A DNA stretch of 52,517 bases, counting the filler, from Diploschistes diacapsis (lineage: Eukaryota): the NCBI GenBank assembly GCA_023645945.1. It is 3 parts of 3 records of this genome, joined end to end, with 100 filler letters (N's around TTAATTAATTAA, not from the genome) between each part and the next. Parts side by side here need not be neighbours in the genome. Positions count along the whole stretch, not along the records: positions 17,573 to 35,014 come from JALAIB010000456.1; 2 more parts are not named here. One strand, given 5' to 3'. Positions 5,681-37,663 of the stretch are shown piece after piece. The translations under genes and the position numbers were made by a program. Under the pieces are notes generated by a model that made no database searches, was not told the DNA's origin, and saw nothing but the letters and a program-made list of their open reading frames with translations. How positions within the stretch are numbered: position 1 is the first letter of the stretch; each line of letters starts with the position of its first letter.

Positions 5681-6776
5681 CGGAGGCCAGGCGAAGAAGA
5701 TCTCCGTAGTATTACATTACCGGCACTCGGCATTCCGATGGTGTCTTGTTTTGGCGCTTTTGTATATATACCCCATACATTTTTGATGCCCAAGCTGTAC
5801 ATATGGCAGGTCAGGGGCAGGCTTTCTTTCCTGGTCCCCATTCTACATCGGATTAACTCAAGCGCACTGAGTTATCTTGGGTGGGGGAATGGAGGCTCTC
5901 GGCGGTACTTTCGAGTAGCAAAAAGATGCGGGGGGTGGGCTCCAGTACCGGCTTGGCAGTTTGGCACTGTTTGAACGATAGGGGGCTTTCTTTGCATCAG
6001 AGTTGAGGAGGCGGAGAAGTGAGGAAGTCCTGGCTACAGCCCGGAAAAAAGCACGGGAGGTTTGGGGATTTACGCAGAGGATATTGGGCATGCACTGTGA
6101 GCTACTTGGGCGTGTCCTGCCAGCTTCCTTCCGAGAAGAGTCAAATCAACTATCGAGTGAGCAGAAGCTGTCTTCCGCTCTCCAGGTTCTCACATGTGAC
6201 GGTAATACGAAGGGTTGAAATGAATTCGTTGCGAGGCTTGGTTGTACCCTGCCAATATAATTTAATTAATATTCGTTAATTCGAATGGGGTTTAGCGGGG
6301 AGATTAATTCGAAAGGGGTTTAGGCCCCTGTCACTGGGTCTGGGTCCTGATCTGTGATCTATATAGAAGAATCTATCTTTGAAATGAAGCGATCTCTCAA
6401 CACGGTCAGGGCCAGACATGTATAGCTCGTTTCCTTCTGTGACAAGCACTGAACCGGTTCGCTTGGCGCGGCCATAACACTCCCAAGGCAAACTCGAGAA
6501 GCGATGTTCGTGATGCCAATCGAAGACGACGGGCCCTGCGGCCAAAACATCGTCAACTCTTCCTTTTTGCGAAGGAAATATTCAGGGACAGGGGCATCTT
6601 ACAAACCCGCTCTGTTTTCTGGTTTGTCTCTATGAGTTAAGGTTTCGCTTCTCTGAAACGCTGTCTCGTTGTGTTAGCCACACAGCTAGCTATTTAATCA
6701 GGCTCCAGAGCTCTAGGCAGGTAAGTTCTCTCGTCAACTGTTCCTTCCTCTACCTTGCCCCTTGAAAACTTCCCCA

Positions 6777-9224
6777 ATGGATCCACTCTCTGCCATCGGT
6801 CTTGCTAGCAACATTGCTCAATTTATAGGAATAGGCTACAAGGTTGCGTGCAGAGTGAGCGAGTATCACAATGCTAATCCCGATGATGTTCCCCGCTCTA
6901 TGCAGACTATCAACACGCTATTGCCACTTGTGCTCAAGTCTCTCGAGCGGATCAAGAGCGAAGCGGATGTCGAGAAGCTCGACATCGACAGCAAATGCAT
7001 GCTGAAGGCCGCCGTTGTCGGCTGTACGAAACTCTGCAAAGACATTGGGGACATACTTACAAAGGTCACCCGCACGTCGGGCGAATCAGTAATCCTCAAA
7101 GCCCGTAAAGCCATTGGCAGTCTGAAGCAAGACGAAAAGATAGCAGAAATTGGAAGGAGCTTGCAAGCCTACGTGCAGATCCTTGTTCTCTACCATGTCG
7201 TCGACTCGAAAGAAGTGCCCAGCCGTTCTCCGGACAAGGGCAAGTACAGCAACATTAGGGGCAAATTGGCCCCCGACTTTGTCCGTCAAGATAAACTTGT
7301 GAAAAAAGTCGATGCAGCGCTTGCAGGCGTCATTGCTTTCCAGGAAAAGCAACCCCAGAAAGTGATTCTCAGCGGCCCAAGCGGCGCCGGCAAGACGCAA
7401 CTCGCGCTGGATTACGGCCTGGAAGCCCACCAAGCAAGGCGTTTCCAGACTGCTTTCTGGCTTACAGCTTCGACTCCCGCAGCCCTTCGCTCCAGCCTGG
7501 AGGACGTTGCTGCCACCGTTCAGAAATCCAACCAAGGGTCCCAAGACGCAAAGATCGATTTTGTCAAAGACTTCTTGGCTGAAAGGTGGCATCCCTGGCT
7601 ACTGGTGCTGGACGGTTACGTACCTGCTCAGTTTGTAGGCGTCGATGTCTAGTCTCTGTTGCCACAGAAGGGCTGCGGTGGGATCATTCTCATTACTCGG
7701 GATGTTGTGCATGACGGCATATTGATTAAAATGAAGATATTTCCCAAGCCAGAGGGACTGAAAGCGCTCCAGAAACAGCTGGGGGCAGCCATAAGAGCCA
7801 AGAATCTTGATGAAACGATAAGATGCGTTGAGGGAGGGGCAGACATCCACGAGAAAAACTCACCAGGCAGATACTACAGGAGTCGTTTCTTACGTGAATC
7901 CGACCATTTCATTATTCAAGCTACTTTTGAGAGATTCGTCGAAGGAGTCAAGTATCTCCTCGAGGAGGGCGCGGACCCAGAGCCGGAGCAGTCCGATGGA
8001 TCGGTCATGGCCTCTGCTGCGTACCAAGGTGAGCCTGCGATCCTGCAAGCAGTTCTTGATTTCGAGGACTCCCAAGGCGCTCGCTCACAGCAGCGATCGT
8101 ACGAGAAGGCACTGGAAATTGCCGCGGACTGTGGCAGAGGGGACTGTTGCAGGATGCTGATGGAGCGGCGTGGAGCCAAACTTGGCGCGTGCTTCTACAC
8201 GCCAGACGTCTTATGGTTCAGAGCCGCGAGCAAGGGCCATATCGAAACTCTCAAGCTCCTGGAGGAATCGGGCCTTCGCCCAAAGGACGAAGACATGTGG
8301 TTCGAAACCATGAAGCAAGCGATCTGGGGCGAAAAGACCGAGTGTGCTAGAAGCATCACGAGCCTTCAGCCCCAACAGGCCAAGGCGAATGCTCACCGCG
8401 CGTTCGCCATGGCAGTTGATTACAACCGGATCGAAATTGTTCAGATGTTGCTCGATGCTGGCTGCGACCCGAACCTGCCAGACGACAATGGCAACATGGC
8501 GGTGCTGGCGGCTATCAAACAAGACAATCAGGAGATGATGCGTCTGTTGCTTCATCACGGTGCTCTGCCTGTCTCTTCGGGCAATGACGGCGATATCCAA
8601 TACATCCGCGGCGGCAGGGCCCATTCTTCCAAGGCAGCCATGATGATGCTGGAATCCATGACGTCCGAGACGCCGAAAGCAAGAGAGTTTCTGCTTATGA
8701 TGGTCGCGAAGTCCATCAAAGATGGCGGCTGGGAGATGGCCCTCGCCACCATCGTCGCTGCCGAGCGTCTCGGCCACAAGGAAGCCGTGCTTGGTTGCGT
8801 CCTCGTCGACGGATGCACCCCTCTAGCTAGGTCTATCGACTACGGCGACATGCAGTTCACGCGCTTCTTCATCAAGCAAGGCTCCGACCTCGACGTACGC
8901 AAAACGAGCAACGGCGACAGCATCATGCACATGGCCGTACGCGTCAACAGCGCCGGGATCGTGCAGATGCTGCTGGAGAAGACACAGGACAAGTTCGCCG
9001 GCGCCGAAAACAAGTACGGCAACACCCCGCTGCACCTGGCCGCGTCGGGAAACTACGTCAAGATCATGCGGCTGCTGCTCATGCACGGCGCGGACCCAGC
9101 GGCGGAGAACAACTTCGGCGTAACGCCACGCGACATGGCGCTCGAGAAGGGCAGCGATGCGCTCGAGGAGTTGCTAGTGGAGAAGGAGAGCACGTGGAGC
9201 TTGCCCACAAAAAGCAAATGCTGA
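6777..9224 (+). pseudogene. Fungal NLR-like gene: SesA-like N-terminal helical domain + NB-ARC-type P-loop NTPase + ankyrin repeats, interrupted by one in-frame TAG at 7650-7652
   Basis: N-terminus MDPLSAIGLASNIAQFI...LPLVLKSLERIK; Walker A GPSGAGKTQLA; Walker B WLLVLDG; same frame resumes after TAG with SLLPQKGCGGIILITRD; ankyrin motifs such as GNTPLHLAASGNYVKIMRLLLMHGAD. ORFs 6762..7652 and 7659..9224 are in the same frame. Confidence 0.8.
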
Positions 9225-15462: not shown

Positions 15463-17382
15463 ATGGCTCCTGGTATACAGGATCCTCGCATGAGCTCCGT
15501 GCAGCCTCGACTTAGGTACAATACTATTGGCGGTGTCAATGGGCCTCTCGTCATTCTCGAAAATGTGTGTTGCTAGCCTTTCGTCAGTAAACGCTTGAAT
15601 GAGACTCTGATGGCGTCCCAAAGGTCAAATTTCCCCGTTACAATGAGATTGTGTCTCTGTCGTTGCCCGACGGTACTGAGCGGTCAGGCCAAGTGCTGGA
15701 AGCTCGAGGTAAACCGGCCCCTGGACCTTCTACTGTCATTGCTAATAGGAGAATTCACAGGTAACAGAGCCGTCGTCCAGGTCTTCGAGGGCACATCCGG
15801 TATTGACGTGAAGAAGGTACATATATGAGGAGCAACAGGACGACGGTGTTGCACGCTGATGGGGAAGTAGACAAAAGTCGAGTTCACTGGCCACAATCTC
15901 AAGATTGGAGTTTCGGAAGACATGCTGGGTCGAGTCTTCGATGGTTCCGGACGAGCTATCGACAAAGGGCCAAAGGTTCTGGCGGAAGATTACCTCGACA
16001 TTAACGGAAGCCCTATTAACCCCTACTCTCGGGTAAGGGCATTGCACCGGGTCCACCCATAACTAATTCTCATTGGTGAAAGGTATACCCGGAGGAAATG
16101 ATTGCTACTGGTATTTCGGCTATTGACACCATGAATTCCATCGCCCGTGGTCAGAAGATACCCATCTTCTCAGCTGCCGGTCTCCCCCACAACGAAATTG
16201 CCGCTCAAATATGTCGGCAAGCCGGACTAGTTGGGAAACCTACGAAGGACGTCCATGATGGTCACGAGGAGAACTTTTCCATCGTGTTCGGCGCCATGGG
16301 TGTCAACATGGAGACGAGTCGCTTCTTCACACGAGACTTTGAGGAGAACGGAAGCATGGAGAGGGTTACGCTGTTCCTCAACCTTGCCAACGACCCAACG
16401 TGTGTCCTTGTCTCTATGTCTTCTGCGATATCATGGCTAATGGCATCTAGAATTGAACGTATCATCACCCCCCGTCTCGCTCTCACCACCGCCGAATACT
16501 ACGCCTATCAGCTAGAGAAGCATGTTCTGGTTATTCTCACCGATCTTACATCTTACTGTGATGCTCTTCGTGAAGTTTCGGCCGCGAGAGAAGAAGTGCC
16601 CGGTCGCCGTGGCTATCCTGGTTACATGTACACTGACTTGTCCACCATTTATGAGCGCGCCGGTCGTGTTAAAGGCCGCAATGGGTCAATTACGCAGATT
16701 CCTATCCTTACCATGCCTAACGACGGTAGTTCCTGCCCCCGTTCCGGTGATATACTCCAGCTGACGAAGATAGATATCACACATCCCATTCCGGATCTGA
16801 CGGGCTACATCACGGAGGGCCAGATCTTCATCGATCGTCAATTACACAACAAGGGCATCTATCCACCAATCAATGTCCTGCCGTCTTTGTCACGTCTAAT
16901 GAAATCTGCTATTGGAGAGGGCCGTACGCGCAAAGACCACGGTGACGTTTCGAATCAGCTTTATGCCAAGTACGCTATCGGTCGTGATGCAGGTGCGTTC
17001 ACCCTATGCTTGTGATGAACAAAAAATGCTCATTGGTACAGCGTCCATGAAGGCTGTGGTTGGCGAGGAAGCTCTGTCATCCGAGGACAAACTATCCCTC
17101 GAATTTTTGGAGAAGTTCGAAAAGACGTTTATCGCGCAATCCGCCTACGAATCGCGATCAATATTCGAAAGTATTGAGCTCGCTTGGAGCCTGCTCCGCA
17201 TCTACCCCAAGGAACTGCTGAACAGAATACCGAAGAAGATCATTGACGAGTATTACGCCCGGTCTGGAAAGGGTAAAGGGCGGGAACGAGGCAACAAGGA
17301 CACGCGCGACAACACTGAACAAGATGGCAAGAAGGACGGTAAGCAGGATGGAAAGAAGGATCAGCCGCTTGTTGATGTTTGA
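15463..17382 (+). CDS. VMA2: V-type H+-ATPase subunit B, 8 exons
   Basis: [93 protein letters not shown]; canonical introns restore the frame. Confidence 0.98.
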
Positions 17383-17472
17383 CGGACGAAAGCCAGGCGT
17401 TTGCAGTAAGCTCTCATGGCTTGATGAGAATAAAGGGCTGGGTGGTGATGGTGGCGGTGGTGGTGGTGGTGG

Positions 17473-17572
17473 NNNNNNNNNNNNNNNNNNNNNNNNNNNN
17501 NNNNNNNNNNNNNNNNTTAATTAATTAANNNNNNNNNNNNNNNNNNNNNNNNNNNNNNNNNNNNNNNNNNNN
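17473..17572. other. Artificial assembly spacer (44 N + TTAATTAATTAA + 44 N)
   Basis: N runs flanking a 12-mer that gives stops in all six frames; an identical spacer occurs at 35015-35114. Confidence 0.97.
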
Positions 17573-18263
17573 AAAGTCGACTGCGTCTGGGACTCATGCT
17601 GGGGCATGTGTGGCGGAGGGCTTTCTTCTGGGTGCTGGGGTTGAAGGTAAGGGATTAGGGTAGGAGGGGAGGAGGAGGAGATGGGCTGGGGCGGATGGCA
17701 GGGAAGAGCGCTCTGGTGGGGTGGAAAGAGAGAACTTCTAGTTAGTCTGTTAAGGGGAGTGGTGGGTGGCATGGAGTGGGCAAGGGTGGACAGCGGGGAT
17801 GGGCAGGGGATTGAGGGAAGGAGAGGATTCTGGTGGTCTCAGTGAGAGGGAACTTGGGATGTTGAATTCGAAAATTGCTCTCTTGTATTGTCTTGATTGG
17901 TTGATTGCTGAGCGCCAACTAGTCGGGAGCGTTCCTTAGAAGTAGGACGTGCGGCTAAGTCAAACTCCTTACGAAATCAATAACGGACCAGAAATCGAAA
18001 TATTATCATACTGTGGATAAACCCGTGGGCGGAACTCCTGATTTTTATGTGTTCAGACAACAATGGAATAGAACTTTGTAAACTCGTGGCACTGGACGAT
18101 GCATCGCACTGAAGACCATCCGACGCATCTCCTGCTCTAATATTAGCGACTTGGTCATGACAACTTCTAAGGGTACCGGCTGAGCATACCTCTAGCACTC
18201 CGGAACGCCACAGATCGCTCAATCCGTCCCTAACAAGTATCCAAAATCCTACACTACCACCTC

Positions 18264-20733: not shown

Positions 20734-22350
20734 CTAGAAGCTAATATCCTCGATCTGATACAGGATCTGGCGCTTGTAAGCATAGCACGATGCAGATATT
20801 GTGTAGCTTACCTTCTCAATATAGCGTACACCGACCATGATTCCATCTTTGTCAGTGAGTTCTGCTTCATCGCCAAAGCCCTGGTTGTTAGGATCTAAGC
20901 ATGTCAAGCAAGCCAGCACGACATTTGTATAGACTCTGCCCATCTTCTCTGGTAAGTGAGCTTCGGCCATAGCGACAAGGCTACTCTTGATCCGGAAAGC
21001 TCTCGCGCGAAGATCCTTATTTTCCAGATGTTTCGCAATGTCTAGCGCTGGGCTAGGAATTGCGCCCCTTGGATTCTGATTGCTGTACTGTCTTAGCGAA
21101 TCGCTAGAGCGGATGTTCGCTCGCATACCTCTTCCCACGTCGCCTCAAAGCTTACAAAAGAAGTACCCAGGCCAACCTCAAGTAGACACACCCCAAGACT
21201 GTAAACGTCATGTCGCATCTCATACTCCTCTTCGGGCACCTCTCCCTGTCACTTTGGATGTCGATAGAGATTCTTTTCCCAAAATACATCGCCCTTTAGG
21301 TACGTCTGGCCCTCAGCTCGCCGGAACTTCTCGAAGCCTACGAGGAACGGACTTTCTAATCCGGGTTGGGAGTGCTCCAGTAGAAGTATTGTTTCAGGTG
21401 AGACATTTTTGTGGACGATCTGTGCGGAATGAAGGAACGATATCGAACGTGCTATTAGCTTTGCAATCCGAAACCGATAATCAAGGGAATGGGGAATATT
21501 GGAGGCCAGTAGGTAGGTCCTTAGGCTGCAAGGGTTACGAAATGCAGGCGGAACGTTGAAGATGAACTCAACCCCCGTGATTCGATCGGAGGAGTCGTAA
21601 ACTTTGGAAAGGCCCCGGCAAGTAAGCAGACTAAAGATGCTTGGATCAACATTTGCAAGAATACGCGCGATATCGCGCGCATCCTTCATGGAGTTTTTGA
21701 GACGACTCTCTTCGACAATATGCAATGGGTCGATAACGACAAGATCGTGCGAAGCATCTGCGACTGCACCCACATCGGCGTATGTATTCAAGATGGATAT
21801 CCTCCCTTGCATGGAAAAGCCCCGCGAAAGAAAAATAGAATCGCCAGACTCGACAGGCTGCGAGTTCAGTTGTTGAGCATGTTGCAGATCTCGAAGTATT
21901 GATAGCTCTTTGCTCGTCGGCTCTTGATCGACCGGGCTAAGCGCAGATGGAATTCGCGCAAGAACATACCAGGACGGATCAAACCTCCTCTGTCACTCGT
22001 CGAGATCTCTTACAGTCCGGTCAAGTTTCTTTTTGGTAACTGTAGCATATTTAACCTTCTATGTGTCCCCTCTACTACCAATCAAAGTCTTCAAGCTAGG
22101 TTCAACTGCTTTTATTGCGTCAAGGTCGCTGACGATCGCGACTGCGGCCTGCAGTTTCTCCTCCAATACTGCCAATACATGACTCTGATGTACTTGCACA
22201 CGTGTGTCCAAACTGCTCCAAATTGACCCAATCGTCTGCACTTGATTCTGTGTTCTCAGCCATATCCCCTCAATGCTCAAAAGGCTTTCGCGAAGTTCAC
22301 GGTCCGCATGCTTATACGCTTGACAGACTTTGTAGAGTTGTTTTCCATAT
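20734..22350 (-). pseudogene. N-terminal helical (HeLo/HET-S-like) domain + degenerate protein-kinase-like domain (MLKL-like architecture); three in-frame stops (22059-61 TAG, 21993-95 TGA, 21249-51 TGA); first exon upstream of 22350 not resolved
   Basis: One frame reads YGKQLYKVCQAYKHADRELRESLLSIEGIW...DLDE*QRRFDPSW...ARSISFLHSAQIVHKNVSPETILL...FLVGFEKFR...LYRHPK*QG...HDVYSLGVCLLEVG, then spliced LPEKMGRVYTNVVLACLTCLD...VGVRYIEK|ILYQIEDISF*. Confidence 0.8.
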
Positions 22351-22923
22351 CTGTATGTAGGTTAGCAGCAGTGGCATTAGTCATGCTGATCATGGTTCGC
22401 TGAGTACGATGGACACGTGGGTGTCCCGCAGTCCATGGGAACATGGAAACCAACCAGATAGGTGACGTTCAGCCCACTTTTGGAGAGATTCACTTGAGGC
22501 AGAGATCGACCGTACCCAAGCCCAGATCTTGAATAGGCTTCTTTTGATATGATTTGAAGAGTAGCAAAATAAGGCTGGAACACAGCCTCGCTTTCTCCAC
22601 CAATGGCTATCACGGACATGGGCACTGCTGAGTTGTAAGCGTGGCTAGCCCGTATTTACAAGTTTACCTTGACCCGGCCTGCAGATACACGCTTAATCCC
22701 ACGACTCTTGTCGTATATGTATATACGGAAACATGTCTTTTCGAGGACCACACCGGAAATCAGACCGGAACATGTAGGTCTTTGAGCCAATGCCGCGAGC
22801 TAGGAAGGATTATATCATTATTATATAACAGACGTGCTATGAGCTAAATCTGTCGATAGCGGCTTCTTCTTATTCTTTCGAAGATGCCAGGACCATTTAC
22901 GGGGGTAGGTGGCTATCTAGTCG

Positions 22924-25900
22924 ATGTCGGCCGAACATCTTTTGGATCATTATAGGCTCGAGGCCGAGGTGTACACCGAGTACACGATACATCCGTCGTA
23001 TAGTTGCGGACCGCAGACGCGGCGTAAGGGACAAAGTCGCTATCAGATGGAGTCGAGTGGAATGCATTGGCGAAGGTGTATTCGGTAAGGTATGGAAAGA
23101 GCTGCGGAATCGGATCCGACAGATCGCAAGATGTCCGCGCCGTGAAGATTATAGAAAAGCAGCGAATGCACTCTTATAGGGTTGATTACAAGAAGGAGCT
23201 GTTGGCTTTAACAACGCTAGCTAATAAAGAGGTATGTAGCAATCTGAGACTGGATTGCACTTACGCATAGCTTCCTGCTTGTCAGTACTGAGAAGGAATA
23301 GTATCAAGAAGCGGGAGTATTTGTCACTTTCTTTGGCTGGTTTGAGACCGATCAAAGTGTCTTTCTCGCAATGGAATACATCTCAATGGGTGACCTCCCT
23401 CGCCACATCCCGGTTATATCAAGCGAAGATGAAGTGAGACAAATAACGATTGATTTGCTGGAGGGTGTCAAAATCATGCACCTGGAGGGGTTCGCCCACA
23501 GAGACATTAAGCCTCAGGTATGCAATTCAAACCCTCAGAATCTATTGGGTCGTGAGAACGCAATTTGTGGTATACCGGTTTGCTAATGCTGGCTCTTCTT
23601 TAACATAGAACCTCTTCGTTATGGAACGCCCTCCACATTCTGAAAGGTGGTGGGTCAAAATCGGCGACTTCGGGATTTCGAAGAGGGCGAAAAACGGCGA
23701 AACCGCATTACGAACTGAGGCTGGTACCATTCTCTTCCAAGCTCCGGAGATCTCAGGTTTCGTGGGCGAAGACATCGAAAGCTCTACGTATACCCATGCA
23801 GTGGACTTGTGGTCACTAGGCTGCCTCGTCTACAATCTAGCAGCTCAATGCGTACCTTTCCTTAAGCCAAGTCATGTCAACAGCTTCTGTCAAGAGCGCC
23901 TGAAATTCCCAGAAGCACCTTTACATCCTAGAATGCATCCAAATGGTATTGAGTTTGTTCAATGCTTACTTGTTCCCAAGCCAGCTCATCGACTATCCGC
24001 AGAAAATGCTCTCCAACATCCAGGGGTCCTTACACGACCAACACTTACTACTCACAATCAAGAGTCCATTGAAGATCTGCAAGGTCCGCTAGCAGATGTC
24101 CCGGCTGACCAGACAATTCAGAGTGCGTCAGGTAAGTATTCTAAGTCGACACGCGGCGAGATAGTCAAAGTAAATCTTGTTAATTTCTGAAGCAGAACAA
24201 CCTGCTCCGCTCAGCCTACCGTCTTCACCACGCTCAAACGAAGACTTTGCCCAACGCCAAGTAGAATCAGAAGTCGATATAATGGATACTGATTCAGCTG
24301 TGGTATATGGATCGGCTCCTCCCCCGGCCTCGGGCCTTGAAGTTTCGGAGCAGGTGGGTTTGTTAAGCACACTTGGGATGCAATTCCAGATATTAATATC
24401 GCATGTAATAAGGATATAAACTCAGAGAACTTCGAAGCTCCTCCCTTTCCTAGTGCGAGCACACCCGACTTAGGACAGGCCGAACAGAGCTCAGTCAATA
24501 CTTTCCGCGCTCTTCGGACGTGCCAATGGAACCTTTACAATCTCCTAACAAAACCCCAATACCAGCAGTAGTACCACATCCAGAATCAAACGTCTCTGAT
24601 GGTCACACTGGAAACTCAAATGCCACCTTAATGATTCTTCGACATTTGTCACAGCCATCGCTCTATCACCAGAAGGCACTCTCGTTGCAACAGGATTGGA
24701 GCGTGGGACAATCTTACTTTGGGATACTGCGAGCGGGACAGCTTACGGTACAGGTACGCTCAAGGGTCACAGAGGCTCCATTAGGCACATTGTGTTCTCG
24801 CTTGATAGCCGGTCCGCTGTATCTACGTCGTCAGATATGACAATTAGGATATGGGATGTAGCAACTGGCACGGCTCGACGCACGCTAGATAGCTCCAAGG
24901 CGATGCTCGCATCGGTCATCGCGATCTCCTCTGACAGTTACTATGTCGCCTCTGCTAATGGTTTCTCTGGAACGGTCAGAATCTGGAGCGTGTTAGATGG
25001 GCTACTAGTTCGTTCGATTAGTCAACATATAACTGGTGGGGTTAAGTCCCTTGCTTTCTCGCGGCACGGCGGTGAAATTGCGTCTGTGTCGCACTATGGA
25101 AGAGTCAGAATTGACAAATTTATAGGAGACTGGGCTGGTAGGTCGCTTCCGCGCCGTAGTTCTGGTTACGTTGCGTTTTCATCAAACGGAAAACACTTCG
25201 CTTGCGTGGGGGCATATCGAGGTCCGAGGTAGATGGACCAACGAGCACTGTAGCAAATACAACGTTTTTGAGTTCGATAAATTCAGAAGCTGAAACTTCC
25301 GATGCAGTATCTGAAAAGGCAGGCCACCCATCCCTAGTCGGAAAATGAGAAAATAACAGCTTCGTCACTGGGTGCATGCCGAGCGATTCTGGCAGTATAA
25401 GCAGTCCCACAAGTTCCTTGAATGACGAGCTTGCACGAAGTCCAGTTCATCCAGCAAGTCCAGTTCGTCAAGCAAATTCAGATGTCCCTAATAGTCTGGA
25501 GCTTTTCCCAATCGGCGGTGTGCGCCACTATCCTGAGGGGAAAACTGGCCTTACTCGTTTAAAAAAGAAGCTCCTAATCAAGCAGAAGCCTCCTTACAGT
25601 AGTTCTATACGTGATGATACTGGGAAAACGGCATCTGGGGGCACTCTTCTCGGTAGGAAGGTAAAGTCACTTTGGGATAAAGCGGCCGACGGTCATCCCA
25701 GTAAAGCGCTCGATTTCCTTCCTGGCAGAACGGTTCAGTCACATCTGCCGCTATCGAACTCTAAAGATCATCTATCAAAACAATTAGAGGGAAGGGCCAG
25801 CGAAAGATGATAGTGAAGCATCAGGTGATGACTGCAGCAAAGTGTCGCTGGACATCGTTACTGTTCCACAGAGGAAGATCCAACGACCAGAGTTGACAGT

Positions 25901-27416
25901 TCAAGCTCAACTACTTAAAAGTAAGTATAAATCAAGACCAGCAAAGGTTTTGAATCTCCGTATGCCACATCCACCTCGTTCAAGTGCCACTGAAACCCGT
26001 CGCAGTATAGTAGAAGATGTGGCATCACCACACCTACGTACGTACTCGAAGCTAGGAACGCGGCTCGAGCTTTCCCAACATAAGAAGAGTGACATACCTG
26101 AGGCTAGGCTACTATCAGGTACGTCCGAGCCACCAGTAGTAAATCAAGATCGACGAAAGAAAACTCCAATTATACATAGAATCAGTGCAGAGCAAATACC
26201 CTTGGCACCATCACCCATCCCGTGGCCAACAACAGGAATAGCAGAAAATCGTAAGGCACTGGAATATGGAATGGCAGAGGGCAGTTGGCCACAAGATGTA
26301 ATTCAGGGAAGGAAGGCAAACAAGCGAGAGCGCCTTACTCAGGTGCACAGTGATGACTCCGTCGATACTCGGCACACGAGAGATCGATCCCCAGACCTTA
26401 CTCGAGCGAGAGCAGACCCAAAGACCCTATGGCTCGACGGGGTTAGGGCTAGTCAGTATCGGAGCCTTGTGGATTTGGAGCATTATCAGGGCACTCAAGG
26501 CACGCAGCATACATCGGAGACGACAGGACCTGAAAGCCTAAAAGACTACAAGAGAGAAAGGGGAAGACTGCAGAATCAGATCGCAAGTCTCAAGTTTGGA
26601 AGTTTGGAAGACGGCTCGAGTGGGAGCGCTACGAGAGACCAGGGGGTAACGAAAGGTACTTCCAACAGCAGCAGCGTAGACTTGAACAGGAGGTCAAGGT
26701 TTGCGAGTACGAACTAGATGGACTGGAGCAGGAGTGGCGTAGGCGTCCAAAGCTTCAACAGGCTGCGGAGGACAAAGGAAGAGCAGTGGCGTTGTGGAAA
26801 GAAGAATCAAAAGGCAAGGAAAGGGCGCTCGCGGAGGAAAGAGATAAGGAGCTGGCAGATTTCAGAACGATGCTGCAAAGGGTGCTCGGAACGTAGACCC
26901 AAGCCGCGCAATTCAAGAGAAGAGCAACAGGCGCCCGAGAGTTCGATCTTTCACAGGGAGAGGAACGCAAATACAGGCCACGGACACGGTGGGGAATGGA
27001 AGAGGACCAACGTGCAAGACACGAGGAATACGAGCACGAAAGGTCAAGGGGAACGTCGCCTACAAATTAGAGAGCGGACCTCGGCAACTCCTGTGACCGG
27101 TCCAGTCCGATGCATCAACGGCCAGAAGATTCCGAGTGAACGTATGGAGAATGCACGTTCACGGCCATCTCGAGACGAGGTTGCTCTCGCGCGAACAATC
27201 CGACCTGATAAAAGCATGGATTCCTTGGTCGCCGCCATTCGAACGGACAGCAAGTGGATGATCTCCTACCCTGGGAACCCGCAGCGTTCAGCATCAGATC
27301 CACATCGAACCGGGCCAGGAGCCTCGCATGATAAAAAGGAAGAGTGGGAACCCCGGACCCCGGTTGCAGGACATCAGTCATGGCCTTATCAAAGTCACAA
27401 CGCAGAAGTTCGATAA
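22924..27416 (+). pseudogene. Ser/Thr protein kinase + WD40 repeats + long low-complexity/coiled-coil C-terminal region, broken by frameshifts and stops; 3' limit approximate
   Basis: MSAEHLLDHYRLEAEV..., frameshifts near 22993 and 23108, then IGEGVFGKVWKE, RAVKIIEK, HRDIKPQ|N, KIGDFGISK, APE, DLWSLG. WD40 repeats at about 24630-25230 (LKGHRGSIRHIVFSLDSRSAVSTSSDMTIRIWD). Charged coiled-coil-like frame near 26610-26897. Confidence 0.75.
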
Positions 27417-34572: not shown

Positions 34573-35014
34573 TTTACTGCGCAGCTCGCTTGTACGTGGT
34601 CTCGCAACAGGGGAGGGTGGAAAAGCGACCCTGCCTCTAGGCAGGGGGAAATACGAATGTGTCGAGCATGTCTTCGATTGAGATAGATACCACAGCTGGC
34701 ATAAATCAAGTACATGGGGGTGCCAAACGAACACGCCTAACAGGCACTCACAAGTGAAAACACGACATCAGTTCATATTATTGTTCCTTATGTACTCAGC
34801 TTCCCATAGGTTGAAGAAGCCGAGCTTATGATAGAAGATTTGATCACTCCACAGTGTAGTAGAGGCACTTGTCCGAAAGCTCGCTGCAACGGACAGTCAC
34901 TATTCACGGGCAATGGAGAACAGCCCACCTCGCCGTCCCCTTCAGCCGGAACGGGATACATTTAATAACGAACTATTCCCGTCGTAATGGTACTTTGCAA
35001 CATGCAAACAAACC

Positions 35015-35114
35015 NNNNNNNNNNNNNNNNNNNNNNNNNNNNNNNNNNNNNNNNNNNNTTAATTAATTAANNNNNNNNNNNNNNNNNNNNNNNNNNNNNN
35101 NNNNNNNNNNNNNN
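35015..35114. other. Artificial assembly spacer (44 N + TTAATTAATTAA + 44 N)
   Basis: Same structure as 17473-17572. Confidence 0.97.
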
Positions 35115-35971
35115 TTAATAAATAGATAGAACTATTATTCTCCCATTTTACCTATAAAGGATAAAATAGCCTCCAAAGTTTTCTATTTATCACGTGATTA
35201 GTATCAGTATGATTAAACTATATATAAGGAATGGTTAGGAAGATGCCCGATCAGCTATGAAGTGCCAAATGAACTACCACCTAGTTACTTAGATCGTAAC
35301 ATATACTTCCGTGAATCCACGAACACGGACACCGCAGCTAAAAAATCTAAAATACTGACACTGACACTATCAGTGTCAGTGACGGCTAGCCTAGTTTAGC
35401 GAAACACGGCAAGTCGCTTAAATACATTTGTTACTTATTTTGCCGGTTTTGCCAGTTTCGCTAACCTTGCGGATTTTCGCGGTATTTCGCCGCCAAAAAC
35501 TTTTCATGATGTAAACATACTAATCCGTAACTATCGTCCTCCCTTTCGCTTAAGAATTAATTAAAACCAACGGTTATCGGATTATCCCAAAAAACACTAA
35601 AAAACATGCAGCAGCGAGAATTCCCAGATGGTCACCCACTCCAGTACTAGTTCACCGGTCTACAGATTAGATTGGCAGATCGGACGGGATACCTCGTTCT
35701 CTGTAGCCTATGGCCGCATGTGAGAGATCTTGTTCTTAAAGGGAAATATATATACCTTTGATATAATAATAATTAAGGTACTAAGTGGTTAACAAGCTAG
35801 GCTCAAGTTAGATTGTGTGTACTGTAGCTTGAAGATACCACTTCAGGCTGTGATAAGAATAGTACCATCTTTGGATAACTTTGCTTGCGTCTCCTACTCT
35901 AGTCTTTGCCTCGTTTGTGTAGCGTGGTTATAATACTAGATAATAGTCCGTCTTGCTGCTTCGCTACCAAG

Positions 35972-37663
35972 ATGAATGTTTTGGGGTCCTTGAGGCGCTT
36001 CGCGCTACACCGTGGAGCAATCAGTCCGAACTATCCGAGATACTTGCCATGGAGGCATACACGGCCTTTCCATGGCTCTTGCTCCCTAACAACAGATGGA
36101 GTGCATCCTGAACTCACAGCCATGAGAGTACGAGTACCCTGGATCGAGGCATTCAGGGAGCAGCAGAATATCGGCAGCCAAGTGGAAGCCACCGCTCCCC
36201 CGTCTGTGAAAGCAACAGAACGTGACTTATCCCCAAGGAAGATGTCAGCTAGCTTCCACAGCATAGTAGGCGCAAACGAGTGACCTCTTGTCGAGCTATG
36301 TGCTTATTGGGGTTTCGGTAGTAGATACTCCCGCTTGCTCAGGATCCTTGGCTTTCGGATAATTACCTGAATGCTACTGGCCACATCAGGTTTGTCGATT
36401 TCCTACAGTAGAGATCTAGCCTGATCAACGCAGGCTCGGCACGCTCTTCATGGACTTGGACGCCCTGTCTGGAATCATTGCTTACAAGCATACAGGGGAG
36501 TCTGTCATGACAGTCACTGCTGCGGTGGACCGCATCACGATCAAGAATCAGCTGACGGAGCTATGCGATCTGCAGCTATCAGGGCAAGTATCATTCGCTA
36601 CCGGCCGCAGCAGCATGGAAATCTCCTGCCAGATAGCTAGGGCCCCAAAAGGGGGTGCTGAGACTGCACCGGGCGACGTATTACTGACTTGCACTTTTAC
36701 CATGGTCTCCCTAGATCCTGCCACCAAAAATCCTGTTGCTATTGCACCACTTCAGATAGAAAGTCCGGACGAACAGGCCATATATGATTTGGGGGAAAAG
36801 AACTACCAAGCGAAAAAGGCCCTAGCGAGCGTCGCGCTTCGGAAAACATCGCCAAACGCTGAAGAGGGCAGCCTCATCCACAAGATGTGGTTGAAGCAAC
36901 TGGATTACCAGGGTGAGTTTTTTTCCTTACGACAATACCGCCATTACCGATGTGCATGGATCGCTTAGTCGTTCAACGCCAGACTCGAGCACGCCGACGA
37001 ACAAGCCGGCGAAGGTCATCTACATGGAAAGCACACGGCTCCATTCGGCGCAGATCATGCAACCACAGGTAGGTCTTTGCCATCGCCATGCACCCAAGCC
37101 AAAATCTCTGACAACCGCGCACCCAGTACCGCAACCGCCACAACTTCATGATCTTCGGCGGCTACCTCCTCAAGCAGACCTTCGAGCTGGCCTTCAGCTG
37201 CGCCGCCTCCTTCAGCCACACCCGGCCCACTTTTCTCAGCCTCGACCCCAGCACCTTCCAGAACCCTGTCCCCGTCGGCTCCGTGCTCTATCTAACAGCG
37301 ACGGTCGCCTACACCGACAAGCAGCCCGCCACAGCCAACAGCGACGACAACAGCCACAATCCAGTGGGACGCCCCACCGAGGAAGGACAAGAAAAGGGGG
37401 AAGAAGCCTTCAGCCGCGTCCAAGTGCGCGTGGACTCCAAGGTGCGGAACGTCGAGCACGGCGAAACCAAGCCGACGGGCCAGTTCAACTACACCTTCCT
37501 CGTGAAGAAGGACGTTGAGGTCATGCCGCGCACGTACTCGGAGTTTATGATCTGGACGGATGCCCGGCGGCGCGCGCAGCGGGTGGACGCCAGTCTTGGC
37601 TCCTGCGGCGCCGGGCAGCGGCACGGGCAGCGGCAGCGGACGGAACAGAGCGTGACGGAGTAG
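35972..37663 (+). CDS. Double hot-dog acyl-CoA thioesterase (ACOT9-like), probably mitochondrial, multi-exon
   Basis: MDLDALSGIIAYKH, VTAAVDRI, GQVSFATGRSSMEI, RNRHNFMIFGGYLLKQTFELAF; Arg-rich N-terminus resembling a transit peptide. Confidence 0.9.

Follow-up and report, generated by a model that had tools for sequence, protein, structure and literature searches.

Decayed remains of a head-to-head MLKL-like pseudokinase and kinase-WD40 gene pair in Diploschistes diacapsis: a candidate kinase-triggered executioner module of Pezizomycotina

A head-to-head gene pair occupies positions 20734-25232 of a stretch of Diploschistes diacapsis DNA (assembly GCA_023645945.1), 52,517 nucleotides in all, which is referred to here as the window and along which all positions are counted. 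The minus-strand gene encodes an MLKL-like pseudokinase with a helical N-terminal domain, and the plus-strand gene a kinase followed by WD40 repeats. Both genes are pseudogenes in the window and therefore nothing of the pair works in this genome; an earlier, sequence-only reading of the locus had taken the kinase-WD40 protein for the sensor or activator and the pseudokinase for the executioner. In many other fungi the pair recurs and looks intact: relatives of the pseudokinase are repeatedly found beside a divergent kinase gene, and the trees of the two genes are congruent. We give an even chance to the window holding what is left, after decay, of a two-gene module that is conserved in Pezizomycotina and in which a kinase triggers an executioner.

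The two start codons, the minus-strand ATG at 22619 and the plus-strand ATG at 22924, are separated by 304 bp of shared intergenic DNA (22620-22923), and 572 bp lie between the homology blocks of the two genes, in agreement with the divergent pair with less than about 600 bp of shared upstream DNA described earlier. The window, fungal DNA whose introns are short, has long housekeeping open reading frames (ORFs) for a Sec7 guanine nucleotide exchange factor (880 amino acids, aa), V-ATPase subunit A, an IP5 2-kinase and a tRNA-intron endonuclease. These are open, and the breaks in the pair are therefore not general assembly noise.

The pseudokinase family

In the minus-strand gene, the HRD of the catalytic loop is replaced by HKN (21405-21413, within VHKN at 21405-21416) and DFG is replaced by the GFE of LVGFE (21330-21338); both substitutions had been pointed out earlier and are read directly in the window. 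A search of 5718 candidates gave 409 relatives at E <=1e-5, the best of them 62% identical, with source names from Dothideomycetes, Eurotiomycetes, Leotiomycetes, Lecanoromycetes and Pezizomycetes. The loss of catalytic residues is a family trait. In a 78-row alignment, the HRD position has H and K in 78/78 rows each, N in 69/78 and D in 0/78, while the DFG position has G and F in 78/78 each and E in 68/78. The glycine-rich loop (G-loop) motif GxGxxG is found in 0/31 pseudokinases. All 78 rows have a threonine or serine at position 366 (numbering of the homologue P0004) in the activation segment, 11 residues past the G of GFE and before YRHP, the APE equivalent.

Pfam returned only sub-threshold or marginal matches on the family, to kinase models and to DUF7580, a name found in no paper by literature search; one source labels the member P0094 "HET-s/LopB domain protein". 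A profile search of the pseudokinase against the PDB recovered the tyrosine kinase-like (TKL) kinases B-Raf (4e-7), LIMK1 and IRAK4 together with MLKL (4m68, 6e-5; 4btf, 1.7e-4). The full-length AlphaFold model of P0004 (predicted local distance difference test, pLDDT, 81.6) matched kinases generally, with MLKL 4btf in fifth place. The alignment to 4btf was the longest among the 50 best rows of this comparison (545 columns, root-mean-square deviation (rmsd) 16 Å), which is consistent with the same two-domain order in the pseudokinase and MLKL. The MLKL-like layout proposed from the sequence, in which a helical bundle precedes a pseudokinase that carries HKN and GFE, is recognisable in an intact, modelled homologue.

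The N-terminal domain was modelled separately (P0004 residues 1-191; AlphaFold, pLDDT 76.7) and is predicted to form an antiparallel four-helix bundle, with long helices at residues 3-27, 33-62, 65-97 and 111-138 and some shorter ones; the window aligns over this region at 59% identity. The leader that precedes a conserved R-Y-G has a mean hydropathy of +1.16 and 9% charged residues, while the domain outside the leader has -0.37 and 29%, and hydropathy is above 1.0 in 35 of 50 leaders. A hydrophobic, nearly uncharged start of this kind resembles the starts of HET-S and HELL proteins.

The partner kinase, its linkage and co-divergence

The plus-strand gene has every canonical kinase motif that had been claimed for it: GEGVFG (23069-23086), AVK with its Lys codon at 23145-23147, HRDIKPQ (23497-23517, the N of the motif lying across an intron), DFG (23666-23674) and APE. 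WD40 repeats follow (Pfam PF00400, E 4.4e-23, four stretches). WD40 repeats also occur in 7/8 of the closest database relatives, and the next group has ankyrin repeats. For the partner kinase P0128 the best solved relatives are Rad53 (3.7e-31), CDPK, CaMK1 and CHK2. Across the family, partner kinases keep HRD in 28/31, DFG in 30/31 and an APE-like motif in 31/31, some of the misses falling at exon borders or at those of high-scoring segment pairs (HSPs). The partner kinase is canonical by these motifs and apparently active.

How regularly do the two genes occur together? Fungal metagenome contigs were scanned with pseudokinase patterns alone, which yielded 80 loci, equivalent to 62 groups at >=95% nucleotide identity. 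Where the N-terminus was present and >=2 kb of upstream sequence was available, a related kinase lay head-to-head upstream in 22/33 groups, mostly 380-770 bp away, and elsewhere in the flank in 4/33 (L008, L038, L061 and L070). The head-to-head kinase was found in 26/38 groups with >=1 kb upstream and in 16/25 with >=3 kb upstream. In the control, a related kinase was present in 3/37 downstream flanks of >=2 kb (Fisher p = 2.6e-7). The divergent kinase that had been predicted to recur beside homologues is thus observed, and no third recurrent gene was found in the flanks, where the largest ORF cluster spans 3/62 loci.

The part of the partner that follows the kinase domain is variable. At 23 head-to-head loci, several of them with flanks cut by contig ends, WD40 repeats were recognised in 9 partner tails, ankyrin (ANK) repeats in 3 and KA1 in 1; a RhoGAP fragment, a WW domain and a second kinase ORF were found once each, and nothing was recognised in 7. 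In the domain scan of the window gene and the partner ORFs, Pkinase and WD40/ANK were the only matches, and neither NACHT nor NB-ARC appeared. The closest full-length relative of the window kinase gene, the 774-aa kinase-WD40 protein P0124, has seven WD units of 42 aa with a mean identity of 78% (64-90%) and variation limited to a few columns. Highly conserved repeats are enriched in fungal NOD-like receptors (NLRs; NOD, nucleotide-binding oligomerization domain), for which an identity cut-off of 85% was applied (PMC4986451, in the sections drawn on here); the WD units of P0124 resemble these repeats but are below that cut-off. Two ORFs were noted in the flanks: a second Pkinase ORF beyond the partner kinase at L013:3047-3826 (minus strand, E 4.8e-27), and a pentapeptide-repeat ORF after the WD40 part at L020:79-1020 (minus strand, E 6e-25).

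Quick maximum-likelihood trees were built for 31 pairs, namely the window, 25 head-to-head pairs and 5 in other layouts, with L029 and L054 nearly duplicating each other. The partner trees have 14/28 bipartitions in common, whereas 2000 shuffles of the labels gave 0.20 on average and at most 4, and the Mantel correlation of 0.69 was reached by 0/2000 permutations. The window groups with L005, and then with L021, in both trees. By this comparison of trees, the data show that the two genes are jointly inherited, be it through co-duplication or through vertical descent in common. A complex prediction for the intact-looking L021 pair (500-aa pseudokinase exon and 340-aa kinase domain), run without controls, scored 0.00 and speaks neither for nor against binding.

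Decay of the pair in the window

Contigs from other public runs allow the breaks in the two genes to be compared with close relatives. The sequence in a lichen metagenome run (X1) is identical to the window and may be its source, and contigs from two other runs (X2, and X3, a rock metagenome) are mostly 95-99% identical to it.

The pseudokinase gene (20734-22619, minus strand) was placed by tblastn of the 524-aa P0004, of which residues 16-421 fall on 22352-21138 at 59% identity and residues 424-519 on 21084-20797. With splice sites read from the sequence, its exons are about 22575-22619 (uncertain), 21129-22350, 20812-21082 and 20734-20766, and its introns include 21083-21128 (46 nt) and 20767-20811. 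The exon-2 part of the helical-bundle domain lies at 21950-22350, and its first ~15 residues would be encoded by exon 1. A tentative first exon from the ATG at 22617-22619 begins MSVIAIG, resembling the family start (MDVTAFG in P0004). The candidate exon-1 stretch, 22551-22622, is replaced by ~27-34 other letters in X2 and X3, so that it is uncertain which exon really comes first in this lineage.

Three in-frame stops interrupt this gene. The first, TAG at 22059-22061, stands where homologues have K or R and X2 and X3 have AAG for Lys (22061 A>T). The second, TGA at 21993-21995, replaces the invariant Trp of the family (DLxxW; W135, invariant or nearly so), which is TGG in X2 and X3 (21993 T>C). 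The third, TGA at 21249-21251, replaces the Arg of YRHPxRQG; this residue, R384, is kept in 77/78 rows with the window as the sole exception (X), and the position coincides with the contig end in the related runs. A probable frameshift lies directly ahead of the intron donor, where the G-run at 21134-21136 exceeds that of X2 and X3 by one base. Exons 2 and 3 are out of frame across the 46-nt intron in the window, and one G fewer at 21134 joins them in frame; this is therefore probably a fourth lesion, with an alternative acceptor at 21088 as a possible explanation.

The kinase gene (22924-25232, plus strand) was placed by tblastn of P0124 and P0127 and by Pfam Pkinase and WD40 matches. Its exons, with splice sites read from the sequence, are 22924-23231, 23302-23517 and 23609-24131, followed by a linker of ambiguous frame. 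Translation from the ATG at 22924 gives MSAEHLLDHYRLEAEV, which aligns with MSAEDLLDHFKLEAEV of P0124. Kinase exon 1 holds two frame changes without room for introns. One extra base at 23004-23005 moves the frame from +1 to +2 between MSAEHLLDHY...HPSY and ADRRRG...GEGVFG, and X2 is one base shorter at 23004; another at 23104-23110, past the G-loop and ahead of the AVK strand, moves it from +2 to +3, and both X2 and X3 are one base shorter at 23110. The tblastn HSPs of P0127 change frame in the same way, with 22967-23104 in frame 2 and 23109-23228 in frame 3. About 550 bp separate the kinase part from the WD40 part, which consists of ~4.5 blades (24612-25193, by Pfam and tblastn) and is followed by a stop at 25230-25232. 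The window's own WD40 repeats are degenerate. At 25216-25223 both X2 and X3 go on with WD40-like sequence (loose ends of 120-255 letters), and judging by this junction the WD40 array is shortened by a deletion in the window.

X2 is not free of changes either. Beyond the replaced exon-1 region, it carries one additional C at 22016 and differs by one base at 22929, next to the start codon. Its kinase keeps the frame where the window has frameshifts, but carries A>C at 23145, which changes the Lys of AVK to Gln, so that the X2 kinase may be inactive. Repeat-induced point mutation (RIP) was considered as a cause of decay in the window and rejected, as the indices for the pair (TpA/ApT 0.71-0.82; (CpA+TpG)/(ApC+GpT) 1.14-1.29) are the same as those of the window's housekeeping genes. 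An attempt to gauge decay at other loci by the in-frame stops within their HSPs was also discarded, because the HSPs run through introns.

The coiled-coil tail that the sequence-only reading had attached to the kinase gene does not hold up. The stretch concerned, 25233-27416 on the plus strand, is purine-rich with long ORFs and no link to the pair was seen; 25349-27416 gave no Pfam match and has no relative among the 80 related loci, and the best Atlas score for the region was 0.81 at a low recognition of 1047. P0124 ends directly after its WD40 array. Sequence comparison thus offers no support for this region as part of the kinase gene. Within 25233-27416, AT skew reaches 0.35 at 26001-27000, and the long ORFs occur in several frames, two of them split by a single stop at 26715-26717.

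Other features of the window

A SesA ORF (PF17107, E 1.7e-12) at 6717-9224 on the plus strand is interrupted by a single stop at 7650-7652 and continued by a same-frame ankyrin ORF (Ank_2, E 8e-38). This SesA-ankyrin sequence, 14 kb from the pair along the window, has the look of a further gene of immune type that stops prematurely. GC content dips to 0.356 at 35001-36000, and GC skew is 0.35 at 17001-18000.

A possible mechanism and its alternatives

How might such a pair work? By analogy with RIPK3-MLKL and with the fungal protease-gasdermin and NLR-HeLo pairs, we infer physical interaction, phosphorylation, membrane attack and a trigger that would be arranged as follows. The first gene encodes a four-helix bundle whose leader is hydrophobic and uncharged, a linker, and a TKL-like pseudokinase that lacks the G-loop, the Asp of HRD and the Asp of DFG. 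The second, divergent and a few hundred bp off, encodes a CAMK-like kinase with its catalytic motifs retained and a variable C-terminal module, most commonly WD40, otherwise ankyrin, KA1 or none that is recognised. The repeat domain of the second protein would sense a cue and its kinase would phosphorylate the activation segment of the first; phosphorylation would free the bundle, which would insert into the membrane and kill or arrest the cell. In its most specific form, this would be an ascomycete necroptosis-like cassette, in which the CAMK-like kinase senses non-self by fast-evolving WD40/ankyrin repeats and phosphorylates the MLKL-like bundle-pseudokinase, whose bundle permeabilises the membrane. 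We hold this specific form tentatively, with less than even confidence.

The modelled fold of the N-terminal domain is a four-helix bundle compatible with the MLKL/HeLo class, and homology of the bundle to the MLKL four-helix bundle or HeLo would be consistent with the data. On the favourable side, VIA-align of the model against 48,161 chains gave Z 10.3 for MLKL 4btf (rmsd 2.1 Å over 98 aa, chain residues 2-117), 10.0-10.8 for the CC-R domain of NRG1 (NRG1.1), 9.8-10.5 for the coiled-coil (CC) domain of Rx, 9.3-9.6 for the N-terminal domain of human MLKL and 8.5 for the wheat resistosome, values in a range (below ~13) that is common for helical bundles according to the tool's own warning. In an Atlas language-model feature search, HeLo PF14479 clusters came first (0.93 and 0.91), with 167 of 256 features shared, just under the 170 that mark same-family matches.

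These two limits are among several observations that weigh against a kinase-triggered executioner, and others also concern the bundle. Unrelated bundles match the MLKL and CC scores (IncA, Z 13.2; Cbl TKB, 10.9; designed proteins, 11) and reach Z 12.5 in this VIA-align comparison and 14.3 in a second one, and the HeLo domain of HET-s is not in the top 50 of either list. Foldseek of the N-terminal model against the PDB gave nothing at E <=1e-3, the best match being IncA (E 0.029), with NRG1 CC-R at rank 14 (E 0.29). HeLo (PF14479), Helo_like_N (PF17111) and SesA (PF17107) were not found at E <=0.1 in P0001 and 9 full-length relatives, nor were they among the precomputed matches of the 120 relatives listed. 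An N-terminal profile (A3) gave nothing below E 0.1 against PDB sequences, and no cell-death domain, and hhalign of A3 with the window's SesA ORF gave a probability of 0.3%. Of 10 short, free-standing relatives of the N-terminal domain obtained in a separate search, none has a Pfam family; nearly all are on contigs <3 kb and they are likely fragments. Of the HeLo-like N-terminal domain claimed from the sequence, then, the four-helix bundle is borne out by the model, whereas the HeLo assignment finds no match to a hidden Markov model (HMM) and the Z to MLKL is not above that of unrelated bundles.

The remaining points concern the partner and the locus. The partner kinase is CAMK-like (Rad53/CHK2/CaMK1) and not TKL- or RIPK-like; it is no relative of RIPK3, the kinase that activates animal MLKL. 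No kinase was nearby in 7/33 groups (L001, L009, L010, L037, L039, L047 and L056). One of these, L010, lacks a kinase within 7 kb upstream, and was scored as having none despite its near-twin L013, which has a pseudokinase >=95% identical in nucleotides and a divergent kinase; by sequence, the partner seems to be present in one and absent from the other of two closely related loci. Congruent trees would also be expected if both genes merely follow the species tree. Finally, both genes are dead in the window, and the Gln at the AVK lysine of X2, together with its extra C at 22016, suggests that constraint on the locus may have been relaxed in this lineage.

Do these observations favour a different kind of partnership? 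The pair could serve signalling without death, the pseudokinase serving the CAMK-like kinase as a scaffold or allosteric partner, a role that pseudokinases have towards some active kinases, and the bundle serving as a docking or oligomerisation domain. Linkage and co-divergence would suit any obligate partnership, the bundle fits generic four-helix bundles such as the four-helix domain of Cbl TKB as well as it fits MLKL, no HeLo HMM matches it, and some partner tails are KA1 or RhoGAP-like and not sensor-type repeats. However, a hydrophobic uncharged leader and HeLo-like feature matches would be unexpected in a scaffold, and variable WD40/ANK tails with high internal repeat identity resemble non-self sensors (PMC4986451, as above). 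The ready loss of the genes, seen in the window and between L010 and L013, suits a dispensable immune-type locus better than a core pathway, and we regard signalling without death as unlikely.

Slightly less probable still is an allorecognition pair, a special case of the kinase-triggered executioner, in which co-adapted linked alleles would trigger death when mismatched after hyphal fusion. Tight linkage and co-divergence, repeats of high internal identity, and presence/absence and decay among close relatives would all fit, and many fungal het systems are linked two-gene loci (PMC12881547, in the part of that review used here); the spread of the family over many Pezizomycotina classes, on the other hand, is by itself no sign of balancing selection. 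Co-regulation by a bidirectional promoter, without direct biochemical interplay, would account for the short shared intergenic regions and is improbable, since one pseudokinase family stays with one kinase clade over a divergence (pseudokinases down to ~26% identity) beyond usual promoter sharing, and rearranged layouts (L008, L038, L054, L061 and L070) still keep both genes near.

Comparison with known systems

The proposed kinase-triggered executioner module shares with RIPK3-MLKL an executioner in which a linker joins a four-helix bundle to a pseudokinase that lacks the catalytic Asp and has GFE in place of DFG; MLKL is matched by sequence profile and by fold, and a separate active kinase is the candidate activator. 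It differs in that the fungal partner is CAMK-like instead of a TKL kinase of the RIPK type and carries WD40/ANK repeats, and in that the fungal genes are adjacent and divergent; the fungal bundle is at most a putative homologue of that of MLKL, and its function is proposed by analogy. Plant MLKLs consist of HeLo, brace and pseudokinase, and an immune role has been proposed for them (bioRxiv 10.1101/681015). They share the three-part architecture outside animals, but the detectable sequence relation is confined to the kinase fold, and no linked activator kinase is described in the sections of that preprint drawn on here.

Closer to home, fungal HeLo/HELL executioners are known with NLR partners, as in HET-S/NWD2, HELLF/FNT1 and HELLP (PMC12881547, again in part). 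These pairs likewise have adjacent sensor and executioner genes, an executioner bundle with a hydrophobic N-terminal helix, and a WD40, ANK or TPR sensor. In contrast to their amyloid templating from a NOD receptor, the pair described here is without NOD, and the kinase would be the sole enzymatic link; the pseudokinase bundle gives no match to HeLo or Helo_like_N of Pfam. The same review, in a figure legend, places some HELL domains on proteins with a kinase or pseudokinase domain (PMC12881547). It also describes a fungal gasdermin gene beside a protease gene, the protease being often fused to WD40, TPR or ANK repeats without NOD (PMC12881547). There too, a pore-former adjoins the gene for its activating enzyme, the difference being that the protease cleaves the executioner whereas the kinase would phosphorylate it.

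A bundle joined to a pseudokinase is already in print, and the architecture is therefore not new. Our literature searches, made in the text of articles, found no paper on a linked kinase partner; supplements such as that of PMC9815663 may list such architectures. In the literature searched, fungal executioners of the HeLo/MLKL type are known via amyloid templating and gasdermins via proteolysis, and a kinase-switched fungal executioner was not found described. The window copy indicates a cassette that is dispensable and fast-decaying, as immune-type loci are. A sensor-like kinase co-diverging, widely conserved, with an MLKL-like pseudokinase is a concrete and easily testable candidate, and bears on whether the kinase-to-pseudokinase logic of necroptosis predates animals or had more than one origin. 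If the proposal is correct, phosphorylation would join amyloid templating and proteolysis as a third way of activating fungal executioners, and the cassette would either be anciently related to RIPK3-MLKL signalling or have re-invented it by convergence.

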